From: Promethearchaeota archaeon
Lineage (GTDB): Archaea; Asgardarchaeota; Lokiarchaeia; Sigyniarchaeales; SOKP01
Length of the DNA stretch: 64,000 nt
NCBI GenBank assembly: GCA_048939995.1
Contig: JBHLOY010000006.1
Span: 1 to 64,000 of the forward strand
Direction: 5' to 3'
The position numbers were made by a program, and so were the translations under genes. Positions 24,653-43,177 of this stretch are shown one piece after another; position 1 is the stretch's first letter; each line of letters starts with the position of its first letter. The notes under the pieces are model-generated. The model was not told where the DNA came from and did no database searches. It saw only the letters and a list, made by a program, of their open reading frames with translations.

Positions 24653-25156
24653 CTAGGTTTCTAAAGCTAATTTTGATATTAATTTGAATGCATCTTCTAC
24701 ATGCTCTCCATATTTCGCTGAAGTATATAATATCGAATTAGCATTTATATTGTTCCCAATCTCTTCAATCTCAATTCTAGAACAATTTGATTTAAGATCG
24801 GTTTTATTTGCTATTAAAATAAATGGAATATTAGTACAATTTTTTTTAAGGTCTGGTATCCAAAAACCAATTATTTGTTTGAATGTGTTCTTCCTTGTAA
24901 GATCTCCAACAACTAAGGCTCCATTAGAACCTCTATAATATAGATTTCTCATTTTCAACCAACGTTCTTGACCTGCTATATCCCAAATTTGAAATAAAAC
25001 TTCTTTATTAGAATTTAACATAATTTTTTTTGTGAATATATTAGTGCCTATTGAGGCTTTATAATCTTCAGAGAAATAACCTGAAACAAATTTTTTCACA
25101 AGACTTGTCTTACCTACTCCAGGTTCTCCAATAATTATAACTTTAATTTTAAACAT
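24653..25156 (-). CDS. Small Rab/Ras-like GTPase
   Basis: G1 GEPGVGKTS, G3 WDIAGQE, G4 NKTD, G5 SAK; no C-terminal prenylation Cys. Confidence 0.93.
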   Translation of the reverse strand: MFKIKVIIIGEPGVGKTSLVKKFVSGYFSEDYKASIGTNIFTKKIMLNSNKEVLFQIWDIAGQERWLKMRNLYYRGSNGALVVGDLTRKNTFKQIIGFWIPDLKKNCTNIPFILIANKTDLKSNCSRIEIEEIGNNINANSILYTSAKYGEHVEDAFKLISKLALET

Positions 25157-26503: not shown

Positions 26504-27367
26504 GTGAATATAATTTCTTACGAATATGAAAAAGATGAGGATGAGGAACCAAAGAAACCTACACCGCCTCCTCTAAGACCTCCTTCTATGCCTCCGCCCT
26601 CAGTACCGCCTCCATCCATACCGCCTCCTCAAGCTCCCACACCTCAACAAGTCCCTTCGTATCCAAAATATGAATCTGAACCTTCAATACCAAGTGGACC
26701 TTCACAAGTAGAATATAACGCCGCAGTAAGTCAAATCCAGGCTAGTGAATCGCGAATTACACAATTAACAGCACAAATCCAAGACGCTAATAGTAAATTA
26801 GCAAATTTTAATGCCCAACTTTACGATAGGGATAATCAAATAAATCAATTATCATCTAAAGTTCAAAATCTTCAAGCAACAATAGAAACGTATCAAAATC
26901 AAATTACGCAACTAAATAATGAGAAAGCTCAATTACAAACTCAAATACCTCAGTTACAAGGGCAACTCCAACGCGTTCAACAAGAGAATATGAACTTACA
27001 ACAACAAATAGGACCTCTCCAATCCCAAATTGGTAAGTTGCAAGAAGAATTATCCTACAAAGAAAAGAGAATTCAAGAATTAAAAGAACCCAAACCTGTC
27101 ATGCCTTCGAGCCTTGCTCAAGGAATTACCTCGCAAACCTCAACATTGGGAAGTAGTCCTTCTTTTGGAACATCCTTAAAGCCATCTCCTGCACCATCAG
27201 CAGATATAGGTGCCGGACTTGGTGGAATTAGACGATTGTGCCCAAATTGTGGAGCATCTGGTTTTGCAATAAAGGAAGTTGAGGATCGAACAAAAATAAT
27301 CAGTTATATACCGAAACCGCAATATGCTAAGAAGTATGTCTGTACTAAATGTGGATTCGAGTTTTAA
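26504..27367 (+). CDS. Proline-rich / Gln-rich coiled-coil / C-terminal Zn-ribbon protein
   Basis: PPPS(M/V/I) repeats, ~120 aa heptad region, CPNC...CTKC; start codon uncertain. Confidence 0.8.
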   Translation: MNIISYEYEKDEDEEPKKPTPPPLRPPSMPPPSVPPPSIPPPQAPTPQQVPSYPKYESEPSIPSGPSQVEYNAAVSQIQASESRITQLTAQIQDANSKLANFNAQLYDRDNQINQLSSKVQNLQATIETYQNQITQLNNEKAQLQTQIPQLQGQLQRVQQENMNLQQQIGPLQSQIGKLQEELSYKEKRIQELKEPKPVMPSSLAQGITSQTSTLGSSPSFGTSLKPSPAPSADIGAGLGGIRRLCPNCGASGFAIKEVEDRTKIISYIPKPQYAKKYVCTKCGFEF

Positions 27368-27556: not shown

Positions 27557-30500
27557 ATGTCAGAATTTCGTGAGGATTTATTAATATCTCCTATTAATAA
27601 AAAACGAATAATTGGAATATTTTTGGTTTCAATTCTATTAATCTCACTATTTGCTTTTTCTGTATTGTTTTATAGTTTCCTTTTCGAGAGTCAAAGACCT
27701 TTTCCAAGTGATCAACTTTCAGAGGCGGAATGGGAAGATGCTGATTTGACCTTACCACCATCTCCTTATAATTTCTCTGGAGATGATTTTAACGATTTAA
27801 ATTTAACATTAGACCAACTTCAAGATTTATTAGATACCATCCAAGATATGTTTGATGGAGATATTGATGATTTTGATCAAGTGAATTTCTCACAAAGCCA
27901 ATTAGCTTTACTTGCTTCTGAAGCTGAAGTATTTAGACTTTATGAATATGATTTTTTTGATGATATGACAAATAAATTATGGAAATACGAATGTTTTGAT
28001 GAATATACTGGCGATGGTTGGCACTCTACAGCAGCCACGCAACTATCTGATTTTTATCCTTACAGTAACTACTCTTATTATCATTGGGATAAGGATCTAT
28101 TTAGAATTAGAATGCCTTTGTCCCCCACTATTGGAGTAAATTCTTTTGTAATTCCAACTCTTTTTCCAAGACCTCTTATTATAGAAAGTGGAATTTATTC
28201 AATCCCTCCAAATTTAAATTTCGGTTCTGAAGATTTGTATATTGATGATTTAAATAGCTCTATATTGGAAGTGGATTTTATTAGTTCCGAGGATACAAAT
28301 CTCTCATATTATTTATTTGGTCTAGACTTACCAGATAATAATCAAATTAATAATACTGCGGCGCAAGCTCAATATACACCTCTTTCTATTCAAAGTAGAT
28401 ATTTACAACTTCCCCCATCTATAAATGTATATTTAGCTAATAACCCTTATGTTTATAATCACTTCATTATCTTAAATAATACTATAAATCAAAATGATAA
28501 CGCATTTGTAGTAGCTAATAAAATAAGAAATTATTTCCAAACATATTTTACATTCCCTCTTGATCCAGATGATTATGTTCCTGCCCCGGATGGAAGAGAT
28601 GTAGTAGATTGGTTTTGTGAAACGCAAATAGGTACTTGGGCGGATTTTGCTTCCGCTTTTTGTGTGTTTACAAGACTCTTCGGAATTGCAAGTAGATTTG
28701 TTGATGGATTCAATAGTTTTGGTATTGAAGAATTTTGGGATCCGTTAGAAATGATGAATACCTCTGCCATTAAATATAGGAATCTTTACAACTGGGCTGA
28801 AATTTTTATTCCTACTGATACCTTAGGAAATGGTCTATGGGTACAAATGGATATTTTATTTGATAGCTTTGGAGCAGGGGGGAATCCAATAATAGGGGGT
28901 GACTATAGAATCTCTGCCAGCTCTGATAATTTTATTTATAATAGAGGAGATTCAGCAAACTTAACAGCTTATTTGAGTTCGAGTACAGAGCCTATAGATA
29001 ATAAGCGAATTACTTTTAGAGATGTAAGTAATGGAGAAATTCTAGGTTCTAGCTTTACAGACATTAATGGACAGGCTTCTATCTTAACCAATATTAATAA
29101 TTCAAAAATAGTTGGCCCCCATGTAATTGAAGCACGTTTTGATTTTTTCATCGCAAATTATACTTTCCTTATCATTGAAGGAGAAATTCAAGTAAGACTA
29201 ACTAATGTTTATCCAACCACAGTTAATACCTCAGGTTTCACAGATATACAAGGATATTTATACGATCCTATAAAAACAGAGGCAGTGAAGGATGCTCAAG
29301 TAAATTTTATATTATTTCAAAATGGTACAAATAATAAGATATTTAATGCATTTATCCCTCCCTTCCGAGATACTGATCTTAATGGTAATTTTGATGATAC
29401 TCTAAATCTCAATCCTAGTGTAGATTCAGGCCTGTATGAAATAAGAGTTGATTTTAATGGTACCTTTAGTTTACCTAACTATCCTAATTTACCTCCTAGT
29501 TTCACATATAATCCAATTACGAATTCCAGTCAAAGAGTTGGACTTAATGTAACAAAACCACCATCCGTTTTATTTTATATCAATAATCTTCCTATTCAAG
29601 ATGTAAATAATCCTAAAGTTTATAGATACAACGTTTTAAATCTTACCGCAAAAGTTTTAGTTGAAAATGTTGGGCCACTTCAAGGACAAAGAGTCTATTT
29701 TTACGATCATACACAAGGAGGTATTGAAATAGGTTATAATATAACAGATGTGAACGGAATAGCATCAATTAATTACTTTATTGGAGATAATAGCATAACT
29801 GGTCCAAATTTGTTGTACGCAAGACACTATTCACAAGAAAATTATTCTTATTTCATTTTAAATGAAGAGCCTTTGATAAACATTATCTCTGGACCAAACC
29901 CGAGAGAAATTAATCGAACAGCAACAGGGGCTACAAATACACAGTTTTCTATTGAAGGGGAAATCTTAGATACTACTAATTTTAATCGTATAAACAATTG
30001 TGAATTAACATTGAAGTTACTGAGGTTTGGGTTAGATTATTCTTCTTACTTAATTCCAAGCGAATATATTTGGACAAGCGATGGTTATTTTAATTTACCA
30101 TTTGAAGTTGCTCCAAATATTCCAACGGGAAATTATACTTTAAGGTTAGATTTTAATGGTACATTTGATCGCTTTGGTGAACCTTATCCATATTATTTTA
30201 CTCTCCCCATTATAAATACTTCCTCAGCTTTTCCATATGAATTGCTTATTTCTACCCCTACAACATTATCATTTAATTTCTGGATAAATGGAACTACTTC
30301 TAACGATTATAATCAGCCTGTGGTTAATCGAAATGGAGATTTAGATCTCACAGTATATTTAACTTATGGTGGGGTTCCAATTGCTGATGGAGAAATTATT
30401 TACTTTTATGATATTACCCAAGAATTCTTAATTGGAACAGCATCGACTACTTTAGGATTTGCTCAACTGATATATTCCACAAACCCTTCTACTGTAGCGG

Positions 30501-31987
30501 GACCACATCTATTAAGAGCAAGGTGGGGGTCTAACTACAATTATTCATATTTCATTTTAGATGAGCCAATAATTTTAAACCTTGCAAGTGGACCTATACC
30601 TCGAGAAATTAATAGAGGACAAACAAACTTTAATTTGCATGGTTATGTAAATGATATATTTAATGGACTTCCTATAAAATTCGCGAGAATCTCAGTTTAT
30701 ATGGTTGATGGAGGAACCGATTATACTTCTTATCTTAGGTTAATTGGGGGATCCTATCAACTAGGTATTAATGGTGAATTTGATCTTACTTTTTCAGTGT
30801 TAAGTTCCACCCCTGATAAAAATTTTACCTTACAAATTGAATTTAACGGGATTTTTTCTTATTCAAGCCCCCGAAATTACAATAATGAACATGATTTTTA
30901 TTTAGCTTTCCCGAACTTTTATGATCTTATAAACTGTACTAATGAATTAAAAGTGATTGATCCCGAAAATCTTAATATTAATTTAGCTGTTGAGGGAAAT
31001 CCAACCTTACCCTTTTATGATAATGCATTCCCTCCAGAAAGTTACTATTTTGGAGAAATTGCTCATGTCCAAGTCCAAATTATACATGCATTACCAAAAG
31101 CGGGAAATACTGTATATCTTTATGATGATTTTACCAACAATCTTATTTCTTCTTCTACTTTTCCAGACGAATCCGGATTTACGCAATTTGATATTCCAAC
31201 TAACACATTACATGCTGGATTAATAAGGTTCCGAGTAAACTATCATACTTATAGCACGTTTAATACTACTTATATTGTAATTAATGAGACAATCAGTATT
31301 TCTATTAACTCAAATAGAAATAATATTCAAAGAAATATACAATTATTTAATGTTAATGGCAATCTGCAGCAAAATGGAACCAATCTAGATGGTTTAACTA
31401 TTGGTATGCTCTTATTAGATGATGTATTTACAGATGTTTCAGCATATGTAAATTTTAATGGTCCTCAATTCAGAGTGGTTTCTAATGGTAACTATTTTTA
31501 CATAGATAATTCTATATTTTTAAATTGCCCTCCTGGTAATTATTATTTACTGGTTTATTTCACTGGAAGTATTAGCGAATCTGGAATCTCATTAACAAAT
31601 TATATGATTCCTTCAATGAGTATGCTTGTTCCTATAAATATAACAGCTGGCACTAGCATAATTGGGAACTATGACACGAGAGTTGTTAAAGACCAATTCT
31701 ATGAAGGAGATGATCTTTATGCCTGGGGGTACTTAAGATGGGATAATGGTAGTGCCTTAGCTTTTAATGAAGTTAATGTAACAATCCGGGATAGTTTGGG
31801 AAATATTATTTCAAGTGGGATTGGTTTTACAGATATTAATGGATTTTTCAATATCACAATCCCTGTAGGGGCAGGTTGGCCTGATAACGCCCAGGTATGG
31901 GTGAATTTTTATCCTAAAGATAACTTTGGTGCTCCATTTTATTACTTTATTAAAGCAATTGAACAGCAGTTATTTAGACAACCATAA
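27557..31987 (+). CDS. Membrane-anchored transglutaminase-like protein (catalytic residues lost) with Ig-like repeats
   Basis: N-terminal TM; DVVDWF...GTWADFASAF...GIASRFVDGF...YNWAEIF...WVQMD transglutaminase scaffold; repeated beta-rich units after aa ~450; many N-x-S/T sequons. Confidence 0.85.
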   Translation: MSEFREDLLISPINKKRIIGIFLVSILLISLFAFSVLFYSFLFESQRPFPSDQLSEAEWEDADLTLPPSPYNFSGDDFNDLNLTLDQLQDLLDTIQDMFDGDIDDFDQVNFSQSQLALLASEAEVFRLYEYDFFDDMTNKLWKYECFDEYTGDGWHSTAATQLSDFYPYSNYSYYHWDKDLFRIRMPLSPTIGVNSFVIPTLFPRPLIIESGIYSIPPNLNFGSEDLYIDDLNSSILEVDFISSEDTNLSYYLFGLDLPDNNQINNTAAQAQYTPLSIQSRYLQLPPSINVYLANNPYVYNHFIILNNTINQNDNAFVVANKIRNYFQTYFTFPLDPDDYVPAPDGRDVVDWFCETQIGTWADFASAFCVFTRLFGIASRFVDGFNSFGIEEFWDPLEMMNTSAIKYRNLYNWAEIFIPTDTLGNGLWVQMDILFDSFGAGGNPIIGGDYRISASSDNFIYNRGDSANLTAYLSSSTEPIDNKRITFRDVSNGEILGSSFTDINGQASILTNINNSKIVGPHVIEARFDFFIANYTFLIIEGEIQVRLTNVYPTTVNTSGFTDIQGYLYDPIKTEAVKDAQVNFILFQNGTNNKIFNAFIPPFRDTDLNGNFDDTLNLNPSVDSGLYEIRVDFNGTFSLPNYPNLPPSFTYNPITNSSQRVGLNVTKPPSVLFYINNLPIQDVNNPKVYRYNVLNLTAKVLVENVGPLQGQRVYFYDHTQGGIEIGYNITDVNGIASINYFIGDNSITGPNLLYARHYSQENYSYFILNEEPLINIISGPNPREINRTATGATNTQFSIEGEILDTTNFNRINNCELTLKLLRFGLDYSSYLIPSEYIWTSDGYFNLPFEVAPNIPTGNYTLRLDFNGTFDRFGEPYPYYFTLPIINTSSAFPYELLISTPTTLSFNFWINGTTSNDYNQPVVNRNGDLDLTVYLTYGGVPIADGEIIYFYDITQEFLIGTASTTLGFAQLIYSTNPSTVAGPHLLRARWGSNYNYSYFILDEPIILNLASGPIPREINRGQTNFNLHGYVNDIFNGLPIKFARISVYMVDGGTDYTSYLRLIGGSYQLGINGEFDLTFSVLSSTPDKNFTLQIEFNGIFSYSSPRNYNNEHDFYLAFPNFYDLINCTNELKVIDPENLNINLAVEGNPTLPFYDNAFPPESYYFGEIAHVQVQIIHALPKAGNTVYLYDDFTNNLISSSTFPDESGFTQFDIPTNTLHAGLIRFRVNYHTYSTFNTTYIVINETISISINSNRNNIQRNIQLFNVNGNLQQNGTNLDGLTIGMLLLDDVFTDVSAYVNFNGPQFRVVSNGNYFYIDNSIFLNCPPGNYYLLVYFTGSISESGISLTNYMIPSMSMLVPINITAGTSIIGNYDTRVVKDQFYEGDDLYAWGYLRWDNGSALAFNEVNVTIRDSLGNIISSGIGFTDINGFFNITIPVGAGWPDNAQVWVNFYPKDNFGAPFYYFIKAIEQQLFRQP

Positions 31988-32003
31988 TGGAAGATCAATT
32001 TTT

Positions 32004-33569
32004 ATGAAAGATAAGGATAGAAAGAAGAATAACGGAAAATTTCAGCGGAAAAAACACAAATTAGGATTTTTTTTAATAATTTCGACTCTCTTCTTAATTA
32101 GTCTAAATTGTAATACTAATATTATAAAGCACACAGAAAGTAAAACTTTAAAGACCTCTGGTATTTGGGCAACTCTAGATTTAATAGATGTATTCGGAGT
32201 TAATAATTCTCGGCATCCACATGATTCTACTATACAAATCTACGGAAGATTATATAATAGAATAACTGATGAGGGAAAAGCAGGGTTTACTATAGCTCTA
32301 AAAATCAATAGCATAATGTATCCAAGTATAAACGATGACACAGATATAAGTGGGTATTTTTTAATCAATTATGTTGTTGATTCGGCTCTTGATGTTTACT
32401 TCAGCCATATAATCGAAGCTGAAGTTATTGATCCTACACCAGATAATGTAGAATATCGTACACATTTATTAATCTTTACAAATACTGCTTCTTATTTTAA
32501 CGTACAAGACCCTCCATCTGCATCTTTACATGGAGAATTTTTTAATTTTGAAGGATATTTAAACTTTCAAAGCGGAACAGGAATCCCTAATAAGCTTGTT
32601 AGTTATTATTGGTATGATGGCTCAAATATCGTAGATTCGAATATCATTTTTACAGATAGTTCAGGCAAAATCCCCTATAATAATATATTCATACCTTTTG
32701 TTCCACAAGATGACTTGATTTTAAAACTGAATTTTTCTGATTATCCATACGTAGATTACTCTGAAATTATAGTAAGCAATACAAAGATTTTTTCAGATAT
32801 ATCATGTGTATGGAATTTACCATCTACTATTACGGAAAATAATGATTTAAATATCGCTGGAACATTAATATCAAGCACAGATTCGAATCTTAAAATTAAC
32901 AATCGCAATATAGAAATATTTTATAATGCAACATATATTGGTACAGATACTACAGATAATAATGGAGATTTTTCGTTTATTTACAGCCTTCCTATTGGAG
33001 TTGGGGTTAGTAGTATAAGAATAGTTTTAGGAGGGACTGGAATAGATACAATTCGGTATATTGATGTAGAAGCTGAAACGCCAAGTGCGCCAATACCACC
33101 AGGTCAGACACCATACTTGCTATTTTTAACAATTTTTTTACCAATTTTAGCCAGTATAATTATAGGATTAGCAATCTATGGTTATCGTTATTACAAAAAA
33201 CAAGATAAGCTTTCAAGAGTAGTAAATTTACCTCTTGAAAGTAAAATCATAAATCTTAAAATTCTTAAAGATTCTGGAAGATTAGAGGAATCTTTATCAT
33301 ACCTTTTTAATGCAATCTATATGGATTTAATAAATGCAAAATATGGTAGATCAAGAAATGTAAATGAAACTATAAGGGATTTTGCAATAGTTAGCGTAAA
33401 AGATTTAAAGTTAAATCCTACAACTATTTACCCATTTATTCAAAAAATTGAAGAAATAATTTATGCAAAACCATTTCAGATAGGTGAAAATGATTTTTAT
33501 AAAACAATAGAATTATTTTCACCGATTTACTTTCAATTAACAGGATATAACTTCATATTGAATTTTTAA
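32004..33569 (+). CDS. Ig-like surface protein with C-terminal TM and cytoplasmic DUF4129-like domain
   Basis: Likely start MKDKD (ATG 32004); signal/TM, Ig-like TDxxGxF motifs, TM near aa 400-420 of the listed ORF, then ETIRDFA...IEEIIYA. Confidence 0.75.
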   Translation: MKDKDRKKNNGKFQRKKHKLGFFLIISTLFLISLNCNTNIIKHTESKTLKTSGIWATLDLIDVFGVNNSRHPHDSTIQIYGRLYNRITDEGKAGFTIALKINSIMYPSINDDTDISGYFLINYVVDSALDVYFSHIIEAEVIDPTPDNVEYRTHLLIFTNTASYFNVQDPPSASLHGEFFNFEGYLNFQSGTGIPNKLVSYYWYDGSNIVDSNIIFTDSSGKIPYNNIFIPFVPQDDLILKLNFSDYPYVDYSEIIVSNTKIFSDISCVWNLPSTITENNDLNIAGTLISSTDSNLKINNRNIEIFYNATYIGTDTTDNNGDFSFIYSLPIGVGVSSIRIVLGGTGIDTIRYIDVEAETPSAPIPPGQTPYLLFLTIFLPILASIIIGLAIYGYRYYKKQDKLSRVVNLPLESKIINLKILKDSGRLEESLSYLFNAIYMDLINAKYGRSRNVNETIRDFAIVSVKDLKLNPTTIYPFIQKIEEIIYAKPFQIGENDFYKTIELFSPIYFQLTGYNFILNF

Positions 33570-33674
33570 AAGAAATATTATAAATATAAACAAATTTGAT
33601 GAAAAAGAATTACAAAAAAATAAAAACTCGTAAAAAATAATTTATTAAAAAAAAATTAAGTAGAAGGTTTTAGT

Positions 33675-34055
33675 ATGGCAAAAGTAAAGAAAAGGAAAAA
33701 ACAACAAGAACCCGAGCTAGATGTATCCCAAAGTTTTGAAAATGTAAAGGTTTTAGTTCAATCGGAAAGAGCTAAAGAAGCTATAGCTTATATCTATCTT
33801 GTTTATAACGATCTCGTTAGAAGAAAATACAAGAAACCGAGATTAGCTCATCAAACGATTCGGGAATATGCTATTACTTGCGTTAACGAATTAGGTCAGA
33901 AGCCTGAATCAGTATATCCATTTATAAGAAAGATAGAGGATATAATTTATGGGGGAGTGGAACCAACAAGTAAAGAATTAAATTTTACAATAGAATTATT
34001 TTCAAATCTTTATAATGAAATGACGGGAAAGAAGTTGCATGCTGTAAGCTTTTAG
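33675..34055 (+). CDS. Stand-alone DUF4129-like protein
   Basis: AIAYIY...QTIREYA...IEDIIYGG; similar to the C-terminal domain of the preceding gene. Confidence 0.7.
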   Translation: MAKVKKRKKQQEPELDVSQSFENVKVLVQSERAKEAIAYIYLVYNDLVRRKYKKPRLAHQTIREYAITCVNELGQKPESVYPFIRKIEDIIYGGVEPTSKELNFTIELFSNLYNEMTGKKLHAVSF

Positions 34056-34095
34056 AATTAAAAAAAACCAAAATAATTTAATCTAAAATAAGAAG

Positions 34096-35859
34096 ATGGC
34101 TATCAGTGGAAAAAATAAAGGAAAAAATGTAAATTTATCAAAGGGAATAATTTTTGTGTTTTTTACCATATTTCTGATATTCTATGGTATTTTCATGTCA
34201 GATTTTATGGATATTTTTGAAGAAAACAATCCTGGAGAGGCATTACCTTCATACTTAAGCTATATTCCTTTTGTCTGTTATGTTGGAGCTATCTTTCTCG
34301 GTATTAGTTTCATAATTTTTCTTCGAAATATAACTGCTCAAAAGTCAAGAGAAGTACTTTCCCGTAAAAAAGTTCAAACGGGTTCTATTTATAAAGAAGC
34401 CTTATTACTCACAATCTTTATCTTTGCTTTTGTCCCATTAATTGGTCCTATCTTCGATCGAGGAGAGAATGACCAGAATTTTTCGATATATAATGATGAT
34501 TGGAATGGAGCTTCAGATTTTAAATATACCCTTGAACAAGAAGGTTATGATATTATGGCAATTCAAACTAGCCTTAGTGCAACCGAACGCCTTAATAAAC
34601 TAAATAAGTCAATTCTATTAATACTATTAGGAACAAATCAGTTTTATAATCCTATTAACGAAATACCATATTTTATAAACTTTTTTAAAAGTACTGTCCC
34701 AAACTCTCTTTTAATATGCCATGATCATGGCAGTACAAGTACTTTACTTTGGGAGATATTTATTGCTAGTGCCTTAGATCCGGACATTCAAGGTGCTCTA
34801 CCTGTCACTATATTTCCAAATGGAATCTTAAGAGATAATGGGTCCTATGAGTTAAGGCCTGATTTTCCAGTTATTGAATCTTTTCCAGGACATCCAACTA
34901 CAGCAGGAACCAATCCACCTTCAACAAACATTGATAGAATTATCCTATCTGAAGCCTCTGCCGTCGTTGGAGGACCTTTTGTAACTTATTTTGGATGGGA
35001 TGTTGTGGGATCCACTACTGACTACTCTTATGTTGATGTAAATGGAGATTATATGTATAAAGAAGTGGATGATTATGTGGATTTAAGTATGATATCTGCA
35101 GTAATACCTGTCTTTCCTGATAGATTAGGATTAGGAAGGGCACAAACAGTATTTGTAGCAAAAGATACTGGTATCGGGAGAATTTTTTTATCAGCAGATG
35201 CTAGCTTATTCAATAATGAATTAATTAATCAACCAGGTTTTGATAATCGCCAATTTGGAATTAATATCGTAAATTGGCTAACATTTAATCATCCTAAAGA
35301 AGATTGGGTCATTGCTTTTGATGAGGCTCATATTCGGCCAGAATATTCAAGAGATTTGACTTCTGCTGGAATTTTTGGTTTTATTATACAGTATATTATA
35401 CACCTTTCGACAAATCCGATCACAGCTTGGATATATCCTCTCCTCGCAGTCTATACCCTGAGAAAATATTTACCAAAGAAGGATGAAAAAGCTCAGAAAA
35501 AGAAAGCTAAAAAGCAAGAACAAAAAGAAGAGCATGAAAGATTTAGAACATCTTCCTATTTTGCCCAAAAAATAGAATGGTTCAGAAGTAAAAATGAATA
35601 TAGCAAGGCTCTAAAACTATTATACAGAAGATTAGAGCGTAAATTAAATACTCAATTAGGAGATCGCCTTATCTCAACTAAAAATGTGGTTGACTTAGCA
35701 ATAGCTAAAGAACCAAATATATCAAAAGTAAAAACAAAACGAATATCAAAATTCATAGACAGAATGCTGTCTATTAAAGAAGGAAAATCTAAAGTAAAAA
35801 ATGAACAAGATTTTGAGAACCTATTCTTTGAGATGGAATGGGTTGTTAATAATATATAA
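34096..35859 (+). CDS. DUF4350-like membrane protein
   Basis: Three N-terminal TMs, FSIYNDDWNGASDF, GRIFLSADASLFNNELI...DNRQFGINIVNWL...FDEAH, TM, cytoplasmic helical tail. Confidence 0.75.
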   Translation: MAISGKNKGKNVNLSKGIIFVFFTIFLIFYGIFMSDFMDIFEENNPGEALPSYLSYIPFVCYVGAIFLGISFIIFLRNITAQKSREVLSRKKVQTGSIYKEALLLTIFIFAFVPLIGPIFDRGENDQNFSIYNDDWNGASDFKYTLEQEGYDIMAIQTSLSATERLNKLNKSILLILLGTNQFYNPINEIPYFINFFKSTVPNSLLICHDHGSTSTLLWEIFIASALDPDIQGALPVTIFPNGILRDNGSYELRPDFPVIESFPGHPTTAGTNPPSTNIDRIILSEASAVVGGPFVTYFGWDVVGSTTDYSYVDVNGDYMYKEVDDYVDLSMISAVIPVFPDRLGLGRAQTVFVAKDTGIGRIFLSADASLFNNELINQPGFDNRQFGINIVNWLTFNHPKEDWVIAFDEAHIRPEYSRDLTSAGIFGFIIQYIIHLSTNPITAWIYPLLAVYTLRKYLPKKDEKAQKKKAKKQEQKEEHERFRTSSYFAQKIEWFRSKNEYSKALKLLYRRLERKLNTQLGDRLISTKNVVDLAIAKEPNISKVKTKRISKFIDRMLSIKEGKSKVKNEQDFENLFFEMEWVVNNI

Positions 35860-35908
35860 AATAATCATGATCACCAATTAAATTAAGAATAAAATAAAAA
35901 ATAAAAAT

Positions 35909-36910
35909 GTGAAAAATATGGAAGTCCCAGAAAAAGGCCCGGATAAAGCAAAATATTATGAGAGAGAGGAACTTGATGTAGCTCCAATCCGAGAAATGGC
36001 TCAAGAGGTCTTAAGTGAAGTTTCACGCGTAATTGTGGGTTATGGGGAAACTTTGCAACAACTCTTTATAGCACTTCTCGTGAATGGCCATGTACTCTTA
36101 GAAGGAGTACCTGGTCTCGGTAAAACTGTTATGGCAAAGACATTTGCAAAAACATTAGGAATCTCATTTAGACGAGTACAATTTACCCCAGATCTACTAC
36201 CAGCGGATATTACAGGTACAAAAATATTTTCTCAAGAAGAAGGTAGTTTCGTTCTTCAAAAAGGTCCAATTTTTGCAAATGTTGTATTAGCAGATGAAAT
36301 AAATAGAAGTGCGCCAAAAACACAAGCAGCTTTATTAGAAGCCATGGCAGAACGACAAGTCACAATAGAAGGCCAGACCCTAGTATTAGATAAACCATTC
36401 ATTGTGCTTGCTACTGAAAATCCTATAGAAATGGAAGGTACATATCCTCTTCCTGAAGCCCAATTAGATAGATTTTTAATGAAGTTATGGTTAGATTATC
36501 CCGAAGAGGATGGAGAAGTGGAAATTATGAGAAGACAAATCTCCGGAGAGTCTCCTTCAGTTGAACAAATTACTAGTGCCCAAGAAATACTTGCTGCTCA
36601 AACGCTGATGAATCTTGTCTATATTGATGATAGAATATTAAAATATATAAGAGACATAATCTTAAAAACACGTAATCATCCACAATTAAGCATGGGGGCT
36701 GGTCCAAGAGCTAGTTTAGTATTAATGAAATGTGCTAAAGCTCGAGCATCTATTTTAGGACGTCAATACGTAACTCCTGATGATGTTCGTGCCTTAGTGT
36801 TCCCTGCATTGAATCATCGCATTCTATTAAAGCCAGAAGCGGAATTAGAAGGTCTAGATGTTAAATCAGTGATTAAAAATATCATCGAAGAAATTCCTAT
36901 ACCAATTTAA
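35909..36910 (+). CDS. moxR: MoxR family AAA+ ATPase (MoxR proper type)
   Basis: GHVLLEGVPGLGKT, RVQFTPDLLPADITG, LADEINR, ENPIEMEGTYPLPEAQLDRF. Confidence 0.96.
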   Translation: MKNMEVPEKGPDKAKYYEREELDVAPIREMAQEVLSEVSRVIVGYGETLQQLFIALLVNGHVLLEGVPGLGKTVMAKTFAKTLGISFRRVQFTPDLLPADITGTKIFSQEEGSFVLQKGPIFANVVLADEINRSAPKTQAALLEAMAERQVTIEGQTLVLDKPFIVLATENPIEMEGTYPLPEAQLDRFLMKLWLDYPEEDGEVEIMRRQISGESPSVEQITSAQEILAAQTLMNLVYIDDRILKYIRDIILKTRNHPQLSMGAGPRASLVLMKCAKARASILGRQYVTPDDVRALVFPALNHRILLKPEAELEGLDVKSVIKNIIEEIPIPI

Positions 36911-36979
36911 AGCAGCCTCTCTAAAAATAAAGCATAATATTTGTATAAGAAGAATAATTAAAAGGATGGTAAAATAAAA

Positions 36980-38308
36980 ATGTTTGGAGGAAAAGGAAGG
37001 ACATTAATTCTCTTTTCAGTTTTTTTCCTTACAGCCGGATTTGCATTTGTAAATTATTATTTAATATATTTTGCCATTCTCTTATTATTTAGCACAATAA
37101 TTAGTTTACCAATTTTTTATTGGAAAATGAATGTAGAGGAATTGCGTGTATATCGCGAGCTGGAAAAAGAAAAAGTATTCAAAGATGATTTTGTGCACGT
37201 GAAGGTAGTTGTTGAGAATACAGGAAAAAATAGCTTTGAATTTCTCGAGATTCGAGATTATTATAATCCAGAGCTCTTTCGGCTAGTCCTAGGTGAAAAT
37301 TTTATTTCTACTCGTATAGGTCCCAAAGGGTTAATTAAATTTTCTTATGTTCTAGAACCAAAAGTGAGAGGAGAGTATCCTCTTGGGCCTCTCTCAATTA
37401 CAATAAAAGACAGACTTGGCTTTAATTCAGAAGAAAGAATAGTTCCTAATAGTGTTTCGGACATATTAGTTTATCCTCCATATGAAGATATTAAAAGAAT
37501 TGAAATTTTAGGGTCTAAAAGATCACTGCAGCTAAATTATGGCCTTGAAAGATCTAAACAAAAAGGATTAGGCTCAGAATTTTATGGCATGAGAAAGTAT
37601 GTATTTGGAGATCAATTTAGATTAATAGATTGGAAGGCGAGTGCGCGTTCTCAACAACTAATTGTAAAGGAATTCGAAAGTGAACGAGATATCACAGTAA
37701 TGGTTATTGTCGACTCATCAAATTCTATGGCTGGAGGTGCCATTGAAAATACAAAGTTTGAATACGCTATAAGAGCTTGTATGCTTTTAACTAAAGTAGC
37801 ATTAACACGTAGAGATAGCATTGGTGTGTTTACCTTTTCAGATAAAAAAAATATGCAATTCTTAAAACCTGGAAAAGGAGAAGATCACTTTTATCAAGTA
37901 TTAGATTTTGTGGCTAGGATTAAACCTCAAGGAAAAAGCCGGATGGTTGAAGCTATGGATCATTTTATAAGACGATTTCAAAAGCGTAGTTTAATCTTCT
38001 TTATCTCGGATTTGGAATTGGATGTGAAAGAAATTGGACAGGCATTGAGAAAATTGATCCCCTTTAATCATACAGTTATAGTTGTTAATCCTTTTAGCCC
38101 ATGGTTTGAGATTCATGAAATTGATTTATCTTCTACTGATAAAGCTTTAGCAGAAGCCATAAGTGAAGAGATGATGGAGCATATTCTTAAAGTAAAACAA
38201 AATCTTCGAAATCTTGGAGTTAATATTATCACAGTAGGTCCTGATGATATGATGAATCAAGTATTAGGTAATTATATGGAGGCAAAGAAAAAAGGGAGGG
38301 CATTTTAA
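36980..38308 (+). CDS. DUF58 / vWA membrane protein
   Basis: Two N-terminal TMs, RGEYPLGP...DRLGF, GSEFYGMRKYVFGDQFRLIDWKASAR, VDSSNSM MIDAS, FISD. Confidence 0.92.
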   Translation: MFGGKGRTLILFSVFFLTAGFAFVNYYLIYFAILLLFSTIISLPIFYWKMNVEELRVYRELEKEKVFKDDFVHVKVVVENTGKNSFEFLEIRDYYNPELFRLVLGENFISTRIGPKGLIKFSYVLEPKVRGEYPLGPLSITIKDRLGFNSEERIVPNSVSDILVYPPYEDIKRIEILGSKRSLQLNYGLERSKQKGLGSEFYGMRKYVFGDQFRLIDWKASARSQQLIVKEFESERDITVMVIVDSSNSMAGGAIENTKFEYAIRACMLLTKVALTRRDSIGVFTFSDKKNMQFLKPGKGEDHFYQVLDFVARIKPQGKSRMVEAMDHFIRRFQKRSLIFFISDLELDVKEIGQALRKLIPFNHTVIVVNPFSPWFEIHEIDLSSTDKALAEAISEEMMEHILKVKQNLRNLGVNIITVGPDDMMNQVLGNYMEAKKKGRAF

Positions 38309-38310
38309 TT

Positions 38311-39759
38311 ATGACAAGATCTTATTTACTTATGTTGAAGATAGTCAATGTAATATTATATATTTGGTTAATCTTAGTTTTCCTCACAATATTCCAATTT
38401 AATGAGGTACTTTTTACCCCAGATGGAGAATTTGCTTTATTATCATTTTTCAATAGTTTGAAAAACATTTTTACTTTTATTATTTTTGGAGGTGCTTATC
38501 TAATAGCAATAGCTTGCGCTTTTCTAGTATCTACAGCTTTTTTTTCATTTATTAATCGTGATTTCATGTTTACGTTTATCGAAGGATTTTTTAAAAACTT
38601 AATAAGCCTTTGGTTCACTTTTCCATCTGGGACTCCACCAACTATCGATCAAATTCCAAATTTAATTTTTAATGAAATTTCAATCTTTTTTGGCGATTTT
38701 TATTTAATTACTTTTCAGTTGCTATTTGTGATTTCAATATTTTACGCAATCAGGACTTTCTTTAAAACAAACCCTAAGCATGACTTATTAGCTGTAGGTG
38801 CGTTAGTCTTGATGATCGTTGTACCTCTAATTTTAACTGGATATAACAACATGATGGATTTATTCCATGCTTCAAGTAGCTATTTAGAAGACTTACCAAT
38901 ACCTTTAAGTGACTCTCTTAGCAGTATTCCATTAGAAAATTTCTTTCTTTTTCTATCAAGCCCTGTTATATTGCTTGCAATTATTTCATATATGTATATT
39001 GAATTAGCTTTTCAAATTAACTATACAGAAACAGTAACTAGACCCTCTTTAGAAAGGAGTAGCAGATTGGAAACCCAATTAAGCATCTTACGAAGTGAAT
39101 CACACTATATTATTGCTAATGTTGATAAAATCAAAGAAGAGGCCAAAAAGAGAATGGAAGAGCTAGATATGGGAGAAAAAACGACACTCAGCAAATTTTT
39201 TGCCAAAACGAGTGAAAAATTTTCTTATGTCAAAGAAATGATTGAAAAGAAAAAGCTAGAGGAAGAAGAAAAAAAATTAGTATCAGCAGCATCAAAGACA
39301 AGACGTTTAGGTAGGTATGTAGAAAGGCTTTTTCGTGAAGATTCTGAAGCTCAAGATACTTTAACAGCTAGATCATCTGCCCCAAAATCGAAAAGTTTAG
39401 CAATTTCTACTTTTATAAATATTATTATCCGTCTTGTAGTACTTATCATAATTAGCTTTATCATTATCCACCCACGATGGTTTTTAGAAGAAGTTTTTAA
39501 CTTACCACCAGCAATTACTGAAAGTGTGGCAATGTATTCACCAGAAGTTATTATTATTTTATTACTACCTATAATGTTAATCTTTCCAATAATTTCAAAA
39601 ATAGTATCCTATATAAAACACAGAAATTTGATTATTAAACTGCAACAAGAAGGAAGAATCAAAGAAATTTTAACATCTGTTGGAGATTACGTAAAAAAGG
39701 AAGAAATAAAAGAAGAAAAGGTTAAGGAAGAAGTTAAAGTAGAGGGAGCAGTGACTTAA
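38311..39759 (+). CDS. Multi-pass membrane protein with charged coiled-coil loop
   Basis: About 7-8 hydrophobic segments, large charged loop at aa ~240-360; 2 bp after DUF58 gene. Confidence 0.8.
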   Translation: MTRSYLLMLKIVNVILYIWLILVFLTIFQFNEVLFTPDGEFALLSFFNSLKNIFTFIIFGGAYLIAIACAFLVSTAFFSFINRDFMFTFIEGFFKNLISLWFTFPSGTPPTIDQIPNLIFNEISIFFGDFYLITFQLLFVISIFYAIRTFFKTNPKHDLLAVGALVLMIVVPLILTGYNNMMDLFHASSSYLEDLPIPLSDSLSSIPLENFFLFLSSPVILLAIISYMYIELAFQINYTETVTRPSLERSSRLETQLSILRSESHYIIANVDKIKEEAKKRMEELDMGEKTTLSKFFAKTSEKFSYVKEMIEKKKLEEEEKKLVSAASKTRRLGRYVERLFREDSEAQDTLTARSSAPKSKSLAISTFINIIIRLVVLIIISFIIIHPRWFLEEVFNLPPAITESVAMYSPEVIIILLLPIMLIFPIISKIVSYIKHRNLIIKLQQEGRIKEILTSVGDYVKKEEIKEEKVKEEVKVEGAVT

Positions 39760-40691
39760 TCATTTAAACTTAAAACAAATTGCGCTAAATTCTTTTTTTT
39801 ATCTAAATTTTCCATAATTGTGTTAAAACAATAAGCCTTTATACCTAAGTCTTGTATTTCAGGTTTTAAATGACAATCCTTATTATCGATTATTAAATGA
39901 CCTAAAAACTCTTGGTAATATTTTGCTACTCCTAAGCATGATATTTCTAAGTTTAGGAAGTTCATCAATTTATCTGCTGGTCCTTTAATAGGTTTTCCTT
40001 CAATAATGGGTGATATAGCAAACACTTTTTCCTTTGCTTCCTTTAATGCACTTCTGATTCCTTTAACTTGGAGAATAGTCCCTATTGAAACTACTGGATT
40101 TGATGGACAAATGATTATCTTTTTAGCCTTCTTAATATATCTTAATACCTCTTTTATTGGTTTTGCTTCTCCAATCCCTTTAAACTTCAATCCCTTAATT
40201 TCTGGTTCACAATTATACTTAATGTAATATTCCTCAAAATGTAGAGAGTTATTTTCCGTGATGATAGTTGTTTGAACATCTTCATTACACATTGGGAAGA
40301 GTTCAGCTTTTACATTTAATCTCTTACATATAATCGAAGTAATTTCTGCTTTATTAAATCCTTGCTTAAATAAATCAGTTCGAAATAAATGAGTTGCTAA
40401 GTCTTTATCTCCAAGATTAAACCATCCGTAATGATAATACTTTTTTAAGACATTTAAACAATTAAAAGTTTCATTTTTAAAACCCCATCCTTTTTGTTCA
40501 TCAATTTCACCTGCTAAAGTATAAGTTATTATGTCTATATCTGGACTAATTCTTAAACCAAACAATTCAATATCATCACCAGTATTTATTACAATTTTAA
40601 GGCTTTCCTGACTTATTACATGAGCTAATCCATCAATAAATTTTGCGGCGCCAACTCCACCAGCTAATACTACGTAACTAGTTTCTACCAT
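39756..40691 (-). CDS. cofD: 2-phospho-L-lactate transferase (F420 biosynthesis)
   Basis: LAGGVGAAKF, NTGDD, SPDID, WFNLGDKDLATH, PSNPVVSIG, KGPADKLM. Confidence 0.96.
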   Translation of the reverse strand: MVETSYVVLAGGVGAAKFIDGLAHVISQESLKIVINTGDDIELFGLRISPDIDIITYTLAGEIDEQKGWGFKNETFNCLNVLKKYYHYGWFNLGDKDLATHLFRTDLFKQGFNKAEITSIICKRLNVKAELFPMCNEDVQTTIITENNSLHFEEYYIKYNCEPEIKGLKFKGIGEAKPIKEVLRYIKKAKKIIICPSNPVVSIGTILQVKGIRSALKEAKEKVFAISPIIEGKPIKGPADKLMNFLNLEISCLGVAKYYQEFLGHLIIDNKDCHLKPEIQDLGIKAYCFNTIMENLDKKKNLAQFVLSLND

Positions 40692-42114
40692 ATTTAGATA
40701 ATTCTTTCTTTTCTAATTTATATATAACTTCATCTAAAGATATCCTTCTTGGTTTTATAGCCTTTCTTGTTGGATAACCAACGGTGAAGAATGCAAATGG
40801 ATAATAAGAATCTGGTAAATTCAATACATTCTTTACTATATTTTCAGTAAATAAGGGAGCACAATACCAACAAGCAGCCAACTTGTTTAATTCAAGACTA
40901 AGTAAAAAATATACTGCTGAGGCGCTCACGCTCTGAATTCCCATAATAAATTCATTTCGTTTACGTTCTTTATCAAAATAATTATCAAAACAATCTTTAT
41001 CCAAACATAAGAGAATAAGATAAGGAGCATTTAAGAATTGAGATCTTGTCTTTTCAATTTTTTTAATTATATAAGACTCAGATTTGCCGTCATTTAATAA
41101 ATCTATGCGTAATTTCTCATTCATTTTATTAATTAATCTTTCTCGAAGCTTATCTCTTTCTAGTATTATATAACGCCAATGTTGTCTATTATGGGCACTT
41201 GGTGCCCATCTAGCTATATCAATGCAATCTTCAATGATTTTTCTATCAACTAATTTAGAACTAAATTTTAATTTATAACTTCTTCGAGATTTTAAAATTT
41301 CGGTAAAATAAATATCTGAACTATCCACTCTGAATAAATCTGAAGCTTTTTCTCTCAAAATTAATGAGATAGAAGCCTTCTCTTTAATTTCAAATTTATA
41401 ACCTCTTATTAGTATAATAGGTAAACCTTCATCAGCTTCTCCCATAATTAATTGAGCTGCTGATGCTAAATTATCGACTTGACCTATAATTGTACTTTGT
41501 AATTCATATCCAAATAAATCTTGAGAACCTCGTTTATCTAGAATTGGATTAATACCTGAGACTCCTATTGCGACTCCTATTGCTCCATTTCTAAAAGGGC
41601 GACCGAAAGAATCGGAAATTATTATTGCTACATCCCTGCCAGTTAATCCCTTAAGGGAATCTCGAATCTTTTTAGCTTCTTTATCGGGATGTTCTGGTAA
41701 TAGGGTAACAATATTATCCCCTTTAACGTTAGATTTATCAATTCCAGCGTTTGCACAAATGAAACCATGTTTAGTTTCGACTATTAGAACATGTTCACTC
41801 CTCAAAATTGAATTTGATTCATCTAATATTACTTGAATAAGTTTTGGATCTTTAATGGGTAAATTGAATTCTTTTGCTTTAGGAAGTATTTTATCATAAA
41901 TCTGAATTGCTTTCTTGCTTGGTTTAACTTCTTTTAAATCTCTAGTTCTACCTATACTTTTTGACACTATAGTTTGTGCTATAACAAATATATCTTCATC
42001 CAGTAAGGAAATATTATTTTCAGTTAGTTTTTCTACAATTATTTTTGCAATATCATCCCCTTCTTTTATAAGAGGAATACCTTTCAACCCTATTAATTCG
42101 ACTTTATTATTCAT
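40678..42114 (-). CDS. cofE: F420-0:gamma-glutamyl ligase fused to C-terminal nitroreductase (FbiB architecture)
   Basis: Likely start MNNKVEL; IVSKSIG, CANAGIDKSN, DSFGRPFRNG; then RRSY...ARWAPSAHNRQHW...ACWYCAP nitroreductase domain. Confidence 0.92.
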   Translation of the reverse strand: MNNKVELIGLKGIPLIKEGDDIAKIIVEKLTENNISLLDEDIFVIAQTIVSKSIGRTRDLKEVKPSKKAIQIYDKILPKAKEFNLPIKDPKLIQVILDESNSILRSEHVLIVETKHGFICANAGIDKSNVKGDNIVTLLPEHPDKEAKKIRDSLKGLTGRDVAIIISDSFGRPFRNGAIGVAIGVSGINPILDKRGSQDLFGYELQSTIIGQVDNLASAAQLIMGEADEGLPIILIRGYKFEIKEKASISLILREKASDLFRVDSSDIYFTEILKSRRSYKLKFSSKLVDRKIIEDCIDIARWAPSAHNRQHWRYIILERDKLRERLINKMNEKLRIDLLNDGKSESYIIKKIEKTRSQFLNAPYLILLCLDKDCFDNYFDKERKRNEFIMGIQSVSASAVYFLLSLELNKLAACWYCAPLFTENIVKNVLNLPDSYYPFAFFTVGYPTRKAIKPRRISLDEVIYKLEKKELSKYGRN

Positions 42115-43177
42115 AATTAGAAATAAATTCAATATATTTTTTCAAATCGGAATTTTTACTTTTCGCATATTCTTCAAACTGCGTGGGAATAGCGCAACAT
42201 GCAGAATAAAATTTAAATGATACATCTGGCGATCTACCCTTTAACCATTTCAAAGTCTGAATTGAAGGAATTTCGATTCGAGTGATTCCAGCTAAAATAG
42301 AATACTTTTCAATTTGCAATTTGACTTTTCCTCTTGGTCTCATACAACCCAGGGAAATTTCCGTATTAGGGAATACAAATCTAATTATAGCAATTATCTT
42401 AGCAATATCAATCGGGTTTGGATGAAGAAATTTCTTCTTTGACTCTTTAGGAGGTATTAATGCAATTAATACGATTAATGATGGATTTATCCCTGATTCT
42501 TTAATATATTTTATAGCTTCTAATTCTTTATTTAATTTTCCGTAATATAAGCCAACACAAATATGAGGAACAATATTTAAATTATATTTCCTTAAATAAT
42601 CAACGGAATTCTTATAATCTTCAAGATTCTTATTTAAATGATATATATCTCTAACAATTTCCTCGTCCATGCTTATATCAAAAGAAACTATATCCACTTT
42701 TGATTCAGCTAACTTTTTTGCGGTACTTTCATTTAATAGTCCTGTGTGAGTATTTATTATTAAATTTGTTTTGCTTTTAATTAGTTTAATTGTGTCTAAA
42801 AACTCTAATAAAGGCACTGATCCATCCGGTTCACACCCTCCAGATATTAATGCTCCAATACCGCCATTTTTGTAATGAGTTAACAAAAAATCTTCTAAAT
42901 CCTCTTTAGAAAGTATTCCCTTCATTCCATTGAGATACTTCTTATTGCAATGTTCACATTGTAAAGCGCAATCAGAGCCAGTAATGCTAATTGCGGGAAA
43001 CTTCATATTAGGAATATATACTTTCAATTGTTTCCCAAAGTTCTTGATCTTCAAGCCATAGGCAACTTTCAGAAAAGAATCTATATCTCTTGGTTTTAAC
43101 TGGATTAACTTCGAGTATTCTGACCAAGAAGACAACCCTTCTTTAAATTTCTGTAATAACCGCTTTAATTCATTCAT
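42107..43177 (-). CDS. lipS1: Radical SAM lipoyl synthase subunit LipS1
   Basis: CALQCEHC; GCMR and C-terminal CC motifs; next to a lipoate ligase; likely start ATG 43177 overlapping the ligase stop. Confidence 0.82.
   Translation of the reverse strand: MNELKRLLQKFKEGLSSWSEYSKLIQLKPRDIDSFLKVAYGLKIKNFGKQLKVYIPNMKFPAISITGSDCALQCEHCNKKYLNGMKGILSKEDLEDFLLTHYKNGGIGALISGGCEPDGSVPLLEFLDTIKLIKSKTNLIINTHTGLLNESTAKKLAESKVDIVSFDISMDEEIVRDIYHLNKNLEDYKNSVDYLRKYNLNIVPHICVGLYYGKLNKELEAIKYIKESGINPSLIVLIALIPPKESKKKFLHPNPIDIAKIIAIIRFVFPNTEISLGCMRPRGKVKLQIEKYSILAGITRIEIPSIQTLKWLKGRSPDVSFKFYSACCAIPTQFEEYAKSKNSDLKKYIEFISNYE

Follow-up and report, generated by a model that had tools for sequence, protein, structure and literature searches.

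We analyzed a window of 64,000 nucleotides (nt) from the genome of a Promethearchaeota archaeon of the Lokiarchaeia (contig JBHLOY010000006.1; all positions refer to the numbering of this window), which at positions 27557–39759 contains seven open reading frames (ORFs), g1 to g7, on the plus strand. The genes encode a giant surface protein with a transglutaminase-like core and an immunoglobulin (Ig)-like stalk (g1), two proteins with DUF4129-like domains (g2 and g3), a DUF4350-like membrane protein (g4), a MoxR-family ATPase (g5), a DUF58 protein with a vWA domain (g6), and a polytopic membrane protein (g7). From g1 to g7, the intergenic gaps are 16, 105, 40, 49, 69, and 2 nt if g2 is taken to begin at ATG 32004. 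The mechanically called ORF of g2 begins at TTG 31926 and overlaps with g1 by 62 nt. The start at position 32004 is most likely the correct one, because the resulting product of 521 amino acids (aa) agrees in length with the database orthologs (521–528 aa, including the identical length of 521 aa). An earlier note on this DNA, which was made without database searches, had described seven co-oriented and closely spaced genes, and the g2 start is the sole correction to this layout. The G+C content is ~30%. A scan of the locus for promoters and terminators, made with a method that is ill-suited to archaea, gave a result indistinguishable from shuffled sequence.

The g5 gene (35909–36910, +) encodes a MoxR-family AAA+ ATPase (MRP type) of 333 aa, which matched the Pfam families AAA_3 (218.3 bits) and AAA_lid_2 (78.2 bits); the score against bpMoxR (33.4 bits) was far below that against AAA_3. 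The Walker A (GVPGLGKT, residue 66), Walker B (VVLADE, residue 125), and sensor (ATENP, residue 168) motifs are intact. The nearest solved structure is the MoxR-like protein 2r44 (E = 2.5e-86), followed by midasin. A search of the whole genome (3.75 Mb) found no gene other than g5 that matches AAA_3 strongly. An AAA_3-like match of lower score (50.7 bits) is located away from the operon at positions 4494–4913 (+), in an ORF of 319 aa. Directly 3′ of g5 and separated from it by 69 nt, g6 (36980–38308, +) encodes a DUF58 protein of 442 aa, in which a two-helix N-terminal membrane hairpin is followed by a beta-sandwich domain and a vWA domain. This protein matched DUF58 (116 bits), VWA_2 (45.8 bits), and weakly BatD, and its MIDAS motif (DxSxS) is intact (DSSNS at residue 245). 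A sequence search of the solved structures yielded no match for DUF58. With Pfam thresholds passed and the ATPase and MIDAS motifs complete, the MoxR and DUF58-vWA assignments made earlier for these two genes are confirmed.

The last gene of the cluster, g7 (38311–39759, +), encodes a polytopic protein of 482 aa with seven to eight transmembrane (TM) helices, an antiparallel coiled-coil hairpin of ~125 residues that is predicted to be cytoplasmic, and a C-terminal tail rich in lysine and glutamate. The AlphaFold2 model, which was built from 56 sequences, is all-helical (predicted local distance difference test score, pLDDT, 90.5; predicted template modeling score 0.79), and the two helices of the hairpin comprise residues 218–295 and 303–343. 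From the distribution of charged residues we infer a topology in which the hairpin (28 lysine and arginine residues) and the C-terminal tail are inside and the acidic loops are outside. Eight orthologs of g7 align over the full length, with invariant residues just after TM5 and a conserved motif, D-x-E-A...L-T-A...P, before TM6. No Pfam family scored above its threshold for g7. The matches to DUF2207_C (16.9 bits, cut-off 33) and to T7SS EssA (25.9 bits, cut-off 32.45), each of which covers the coiled coil plus one TM helix, were rejected as compositional because the orthologs do not reproduce them. A Foldseek search with the model found nothing at E ≤ 0.001, with template modeling scores near 0.1, and the best Z-score in an exhaustive VIA fold search was 8.6 (talin, Sla2, and generic helical bundles), which is below the meaningful level for helical models. 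The description of g7 in the earlier note as an unrecognized multi-pass protein with a coiled-coil loop therefore stands, and the loop can now be specified as a modeled hairpin.

Relatives of g7 were searched for with a profile of the family in 1.84 billion representative proteins, which retrieved 129 clusters. The named members in 20 sampled clusters were all Asgard archaea (Hel-, Baldr-, Ran-, Frey/Jord-, Odin-, Thor-, and Hodarchaeales), and the clusters found in the protein atlas belonged to Promethearchaeota only. In single-protein searches, 353 of the 400 Asgard genomes contained a relative; when only the 90 high-quality genomes are considered, the number is 86 (~96%). Judging from its named relatives, the g7 family is known only from Asgard archaea and appears to be specific to them.

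The g2 gene (32004–33569, +) encodes a bitopic protein of 521 aa, which we characterized by AlphaFold2, Foldseek, and the homology of its tail. The model (pLDDT 82) begins with an N-terminal TM helix (a TM or signal anchor), which is separated from the second TM helix by three beta-sandwich domains that are predicted to be extracellular. The second TM helix is followed by a five-helix, DUF4129-like tail that is predicted to be cytoplasmic. The Foldseek matches of g2 were the S-layer stalk protein SlaB of Sulfolobus, macroglobulin-domain arrays, and adhesins (E ~1e-11). The tail recurs as a free protein of 126 aa encoded by g3 (33675–34055, +), which is likewise predicted to be cytoplasmic and shares 37% identity with the g2 tail (BLASTP, E = 2e-22). 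All 470 homologs of g3 are hypothetical proteins of Asgard metagenome genomes, and identity was 73–100% among the Lokiarchaeia matches listed. The Pfam model DUF4129 (PF13559) matched neither g2 nor g3, even at E = 10, nor any other place in their genome region. Orthologs encoded at the same position in other Asgard classes do pass this model (49.6, 40.5, 37.8, 28.1, and 26.8 bits; cut-off 24.8), and hhalign aligned the family of g3 and the g2 tail with these orthologs over 109 columns with 99.2% probability (E = 1.2e-19). The motifs TxRE[YF] and Exxx[YF] are common to both sets. Hence, the DUF4129-like calls made earlier for g2 and g3 are supported by way of the passing orthologs and the profile–profile match, although the Pfam model itself does not hit the window proteins.

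The membrane protein of 587 aa encoded by g4 (34096–35859, +) comprises three N-terminal TM helices, a DUF4350 domain of the GldG/GIFT type that is predicted to be extracellular, further TM helices, and a charged helical tail that is predicted to be cytoplasmic. In the window, the match to DUF4350 (PF14258) is weak and remains below the Pfam threshold (22.6 bits, cut-off 30.4), whereas g4 orthologs at the same operon position score above this cut-off (38.8, 56.4, and 53.9 bits); the earlier DUF4350-like call for g4 is thus carried by its orthologs. These orthologs also touch ABC_transp_aux (GldG) and weakly match IFT52_GIFT. When a profile of nine g4 orthologs was compared with all solved structures, IFT52 was the sole match (E = 2e-4 and 8e-4). 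A third copy of DUF4129, considered for the tail of g4, was unsupported (hhalign probability 1%).

At the head of the operon, g1 (27557–31987, +) encodes a surface protein of 1476 aa with a type-II anchor, and its orthologs occupy the same leading position in other families. A single N-terminal TM helix (residues 19–37) is followed by a region of ~260 aa without an assigned fold, the transglutaminase-like core (residues 313–432; positions 28493–28852, +), and a stalk of ~1000 residues that is composed of Ig/macroglobulin-like beta-sandwich repeats. The Pfam scan gave weak matches to Big_1 and MG2 and none to TgpA_N. Two alternating types of motif occur in g1 four times over with a period of ~230 aa. 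These repeats are visible through motif spacing only, and a BLASTP self-comparison of g1 found no internal repeats. The protein contains 35 N-X-S/T sequons versus 20 expected, a number that was reached in one of 2000 shuffles, and such an enrichment was seen for g1 only. Glycosylation of g1 is predicted only.

The core was identified by Pfam (Transglut_core, 34.4 bits with a cut-off of 23, E = 2.9e-8) and by a profile alignment with TgpA. The best solved relative of a profile made from six Asgard transglutaminase cores was TgpA of Pseudomonas (6g49; E = 2.4e-7). Aligned to this structure, g1 has Trp in the place of the catalytic Cys (GTWADFA instead of G-x-C-x-x-F-A) and Tyr in the place of the catalytic His (YNW instead of HAW), while the catalytic Asp is retained (WVQMD). 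By these residues, the core is catalytically dead in the window, and the "dead transglutaminase" of the earlier note is true for this protein. A transglutaminase that is dead throughout the phylum is ruled out, since family f21 retains the full Cys-His-Asp triad (here and below, f, L, and G denote families, loci, and genomes, respectively). The f21 ortholog (L017:9435-13163, −; genome G117), a fusion of 1242 aa that combines the transglutaminase core, Ig domains, and DUF4129, carries the motifs GICVHFA, HAW, and FDPT. The Cys was lost in every other sampled Asgard lineage by differing substitutions; its position is occupied by Trp, Phe, Ser, Pro (twice), or Gly in the orthologs, and the core of the Odinarchaeum type has Ser-His-Asp. 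Because f21 keeps the triad while the other lineages differ in their substitutions, we consider the domain to have been an enzyme ancestrally, whose catalytic residues were apparently lost more than once while the operon stayed.

Among the g1 orthologs, the thorarchaeial protein showed a weak match to TgpA_N (DUF3488; 29.6 bits), and such proteins are named TgpA-type or "DUF4129 domain-containing transglutaminase family protein" by NCBI. A sequence search of the solved structures found no match for the thorarchaeial transglutaminase protein. Elsewhere in the genome from which the window was taken, two further ORFs contain a Transglut_core domain (G000:C17:449745-450119, 98.3 bits, 455 aa; and G000:C18:3191-3538, 63.7 bits, 244 aa). 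Both score far above g1 and may encode active enzymes.

The gene neighborhoods of 14 loci from nine families were compared, and their genes were scored by phmmer, the g7 profile, and Pfam. Overall, the gene order is retained in at least nine Asgard families. Families f1, f3, f13, f19, f21, f24, and f31 show the arrangement (transglutaminase giant)/(DUF4129)/DUF4350/MoxR/DUF58/g7, which supports the view that these genes form a conserved functional unit. In f1 (L007), the seven genes are identical in layout to those of the window. Family f3 (L009) has a transglutaminase giant, a protein with a DUF4129 tail, and a free DUF4129 protein followed by DUF4350, MoxR, DUF58, and g7. The head of f13 (L018) consists of three genes as in the window, and here the DUF4129 domains pass Pfam. 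A compact form with five genes, in which the transglutaminase core, Ig domains, and DUF4129 are joined in one protein, occurs in f19 of the Thorarchaeia (L013) and in f21 (L017). The two loci of f31 (L012 and L014) encode transglutaminase giants of 2172 and 2377 aa and then a free DUF4129 protein, DUF4350, MoxR, DUF58, and g7. In f24 (L015:8238-15580; genome G290), an Ig-like protein of 763 aa without the transglutaminase core takes part, and a divergent g7 of 400 aa located after DUF58 is detectable by the family profile only (E = 7.6e-16). The operon is reduced in family f9 (L016), where g7 could not be detected. In two f3 genomes, MoxR and DUF58 are separated by insertions. One of these insertions (L008:8007-12113) encodes a TPR protein of 560 aa and an LRR protein; the other (L010:6016-12714) encodes a serine resolvase, four ORFs without assignment, and a DEAD-box helicase, and looks like a mobile element from its gene content. 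Because split (see below), inserted, and headless layouts are found among the loci, DUF4129, DUF4350, MoxR, DUF58, and g7 are, as judged from gene content, the invariant core of the module, and the surface-protein head is its variable part.

The degree of conservation differs among the seven proteins. Compared with the orthologs in genomes G189, G149, G138, and G015, identity was 87, 75, 67, and 50% for MoxR and 86, 70, 53, and 37% for DUF58, respectively. The values in the same order were 74, 57, 35, and 20% for g3, 64, 51, 40, and 29% for g4, and 61, 47, 32, and 25% for g7. For the proteins at the head of the operon they were 50, 39, 29, and 26% (g1) and 51, 34, 29, and 25% (g2). This gradient fits a conserved cytoplasmic engine combined with exposed, fast-evolving outer parts.

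The earlier note had regarded the cluster as a candidate for an undescribed system. However, systems of this kind have already been described. Makarova, Galperin, and Koonin (2015; PMC5898192) reported archaeal operons of arCOG01314 (DUF4350, GldG-like), a COG0714 MoxR ATPase, and a vWA protein with an N-terminal Ig-like domain, to which Ig-like proteins of the S-layer type and small polytopic membrane proteins, including the 5-TM families arCOG07126 and arCOG11232, are added. A secretion or membrane-remodeling complex was proposed for these operons on the basis of prediction only. As in this neighborhood (Table 2 of that study), a single predicted operon of the window combines DUF4350, MoxR, and vWA with Ig-like proteins of the membrane or surface. 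The study predates the Asgard genomes and lists neither a transglutaminase-like nor a DUF4129 component. Its DUF4350 proteins combine a signal peptide with a single TM helix at the C terminus, in contrast to the three N-terminal TM helices of g4. The vWA domain is predicted here to be cytoplasmic and not secreted, and the profile search detected no relative of g7 outside the Asgard archaea.

The second described relative is the MoxR-vWA-YebA/TgpA transglutaminase operon of Zhang and Aravind (2012; PMC3495828), who proposed a role in membrane-proximal proteolysis, tied the MoxR and transglutaminase-like domains to dynein, midasin, and ciliary proteins, and suggested that inactive transglutaminase domains bind peptides. 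Linked genes for MoxR, DUF58/vWA, and a membrane-bound transglutaminase-like protein are common to this operon and the one studied here, and TgpA is the closest solved kin of the g1 core. In contrast to TgpA, g1 has one TM helix instead of the multi-TM TgpA_N domain, lacks the catalytic Cys and His, and has gained an Ig-like stalk of ~1000 residues. Beyond the genes of the Zhang and Aravind operon, the window contains DUF4350, split DUF4129 proteins, and g7.

Experimental data exist for a related actinobacterial pathway. The epibiont-sensing Esr pathway of Actinomycetales (bioRxiv 10.64898/2026.09.08.750141), in which a kinase, an FHA protein, and an Ig-repeat sensor accompany MoxR, vWA, and a transglutaminase, was shown by experiment to be a threat-sensing pathway, and the PFNA cluster of bifidobacteria (PMC8430577) resembles the Esr cluster. 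As in the window, MoxR, vWA/DUF58, and the transglutaminase of Esr and PFNA are encoded beside a long, filamentous surface protein with Ig/FN3 repeats. Esr and PFNA differ from the operon studied here by a transglutaminase that is presumed to be active and by the presence of a Ser/Thr kinase, a phosphatase, an FHA protein, and a sensor head of the beta-propeller type. DUF4350, DUF4129, and g7 are present here and unreported in Esr and PFNA. When the operon and seven flanking genes were scanned with Pfam, no Ser/Thr kinase, phosphatase, FHA, or beta-propeller/FN3 sensor was found.

The pairing of a ring of the MoxR clade of AAA+ ATPases with a MIDAS-containing vWA partner is also known from RavA-ViaA, CbbQ-CbbO, NorQ-NorD, and midasin. 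While the clients of RavA-ViaA, CbbQ-CbbO, and NorQ-NorD are soluble or respiratory enzymes, the likely clients in the system studied here are membrane proteins with large extracellular parts. The MoxR-vWA ternary conflict systems of Kaur et al. (2020) reportedly include effector domains as well as a sensor, such as a beta-propeller, as their third component, and show a patchy distribution. In contrast, Pfam detected no effector in the seven genes and their flanks, and the module is found in ~96% of the high-quality Asgard genomes. PADLOC yielded no match to known defense systems, and in the literature we came across no study of Asgard operons with MoxR or transglutaminase genes. We conclude that the operon is an Asgard-specific form of a known kind of module, to which the g7 family, a pseudo-transglutaminase, and split DUF4129 proteins have been added. 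Its parts list, together with the additional g7 and the split DUF4129, matches the proposal of the earlier note that it represents an expanded relative of the MoxR-DUF58-DUF4350-DUF4129-transglutaminase clusters.

The interpretation that we favor, and to which we assign an about even chance of being correct, is that the seven genes are the Lokiarchaeia form of an envelope module found in nearly all Asgard archaea, in which MoxR and DUF58 would assemble or remodel a surface stalk complex. According to the predicted topology, the cytoplasmic side of the membrane would harbor MoxR together with the vWA and DUF4129 domains and the hairpin of g7, and g1, the ectodomain of g2, and the DUF4350 domain would face outward. 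By analogy with RavA-ViaA, CbbQ-CbbO, NorQ-NorD, and midasin, the metal site of the vWA domain could grip an acidic residue of a membrane partner, the likeliest candidates being the TxRE[YF]...Exxx[YF] motif of DUF4129 or the hairpin of g7. The MoxR ring would then pull on this partner by ATP hydrolysis, and the stalk-bearing complex would thereby be assembled, changed in conformation, or turned over. In g1, the dead transglutaminase domain would serve as a binding module instead of an enzyme, and free g3 may compete with or complement the tethered tail of g2. Support for this interpretation comes from the likeness of the g2 ectodomain to S-layer stalks, macroglobulin arrays, and adhesins and from the sequon enrichment of g1. 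It also draws on the tight spacing and recurring order of the genes, the wide distribution of g7, the single strong MoxR gene, the intact ATPase and MIDAS motifs, the charge-based topology of g7, the identity gradient, the lost catalytic residues of g1, the negative PADLOC result, and the membrane complex that Makarova et al. (2015) proposed for such neighborhoods. The earlier idea of a motor coupled to glycosylated stalks is upheld in so far as the predicted topology places cytoplasmic MoxR/vWA beside Ig-bearing membrane proteins, but the glycosylated nature of the stalks is a prediction, and g1 alone is enriched in sequons. The roles suggested in the earlier note, namely adhesion, surface remodeling, or partner contact, are guesses.

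Several points weigh against an envelope role of this kind. In genome G189, which represents a sister genus, g1-g2-g3 (L019:5497-11722) are located ~770 kb from g4-MoxR-DUF58-g7 (L006:10306-15309, with a g4 ORF of 358 aa only) on one contig of 3.3 Mb. The linkage between stalk and motor is therefore not obligatory in cis. This distant head and the Ig protein of f24 without a transglutaminase head also contradict the earlier claim that the system is "built around" the dead transglutaminase. The topology used above was derived from hydrophobicity, the positive-inside rule, and models of single chains, and our choice of the client of MoxR/vWA is a guess. Furthermore, the fast-changing outer parts would also fit a sensor under diversifying selection. 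Such a sensor is the main rival explanation, which we regard as possible but clearly less probable than an envelope role. In this scenario, which resembles Esr and PFNA, a stalk headed by the pseudo-transglutaminase would bind an external cue, for example a partner cell, an epibiont, or a virus. Through the TM helices and the DUF4129 tails, vWA/MoxR would receive the signal and control a response in the cytoplasm. The experimentally supported Esr pathway uses a filamentous Ig-repeat sensor in combination with MoxR, vWA, and a transglutaminase, and the core of PFNA is the same. The outer proteins evolve far faster than the cytoplasmic ones, and the suggested peptide binding of inactive transglutaminase domains (PMC3495828) would suit a sensor head. 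However, no kinase, phosphatase, FHA, beta-propeller, or effector gene is found in or beside the operon, PADLOC finds nothing, and the transglutaminase of Esr was proposed to be active and to anchor the sensor, whereas the g1 core is dead. Moreover, the module is single-copy and near-universal in Asgard archaea, unlike the patchy conflict systems. Because of this distribution and because kinase, effector, and defense signatures are missing, we favor a housekeeping role in the envelope over a conflict sensor.

Alternatively, the operon could encode a novel secretion system as proposed by Makarova et al. (2015), with the GldG-like DUF4350 and polytopic proteins forming the conduit, MoxR providing the energy, and the Ig-like proteins being substrates or outer parts. 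DUF4350 is indeed a relative of GldG, which belongs to the gliding/type IX apparatus, the polytopic g7 is always located beside DUF58, and large secreted or anchored Ig-like proteins are encoded upstream. We nevertheless deem secretion unlikely, as g1 and g2 have ordinary N-terminal signal anchors that suit Sec insertion, the g7 model of a helical bundle with a hairpin does not look like known channels, and the characterized MoxR ATPases are well established as chaperones or remodelers and not as translocases. Even weaker is the case for membrane-proximal, ATP-dependent degradation in the sense of Zhang and Aravind (2012), in which vWA would recruit and MoxR unfold a protein that is then cleaved by the transglutaminase-like peptidase. 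The required linkage of MoxR, vWA, and transglutaminase is present, and the family represented by L017 keeps Cys-His-Asp. In the window, however, the nucleophilic Cys and the His are gone, and most Asgard lineages have kept the operon yet lost the triad. Because g1 is rich in sequons and has only one TM helix, which precedes the transglutaminase domain at the N terminus, this domain is also predicted to be extracellular and would thus be separated from the cytoplasmic MoxR. Degradation therefore seems extremely improbable to us.

No known organisms are more closely related to eukaryotes than the Asgard archaea, and few components of their cell surface, or of the machinery that builds it, have been identified. 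The near-universal, single-copy module described here includes a membrane-protein family seen only in these archaea and some of the largest surface proteins predicted in them. If it assembles or controls stalks, it would offer a direct handle on how Asgard archaea build their envelope and make contact with syntrophic partners. A function could then be assigned for the first time to the MoxR-DUF58-DUF4350-DUF4129 module, which occurs widely among prokaryotes. Independently of this, the repeated loss of catalytic residues from a domain that is kept appears to be a clear case of an enzyme turned into a binding module. MoxR is the closest prokaryotic relative of the AAA domains of dynein and midasin, the vWA domain is the counterpart of the MIDAS domain of midasin, and an inactive transglutaminase-like domain occurs in the ciliary protein CC2D2A/MKS6. 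Together with the GIFT-type domain, for which the DUF4350 profile matched IFT52, prokaryotic counterparts of four linked eukaryotic parts are thus united in one operon. That the operon was the archaeal source of the eukaryotic MoxR-transglutaminase-GIFT functional linkage, as in the origin of cilia envisaged by Zhang and Aravind, or that it corresponds to surface structures of Asgard cells whose proteins have yet to be assigned, is in our view very unlikely.

The operon is flanked upstream by genes for MCM, a Ras-like GTPase, a histone deacetylase, and a coiled-coil protein, and downstream, on the opposite strand, by genes for CofD, a CofE-nitroreductase fusion, and a radical SAM protein. The region of cofD (39756-42132, −) converges on g7, and the last 4 nt of g7 (39756-39759) are common to both ORFs; cofD is followed by the FbiB-like CofE-nitroreductase fusion and then by the radical SAM gene. 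Directly 5′ of g1, the gene of the coiled-coil protein (26504-27367, +) has a counterpart at the same position in one other genus (L007, E = 3e-54) and is not found beside g1 in G189 (L019); this protein probably does not belong to the module. Farther upstream, the gene of a small GTPase of the Ras/Roc family (24653-25156, −; 134.9 bits) adjoins the MCM helicase gene (22510-24636, +), which is typical Asgard gene content.

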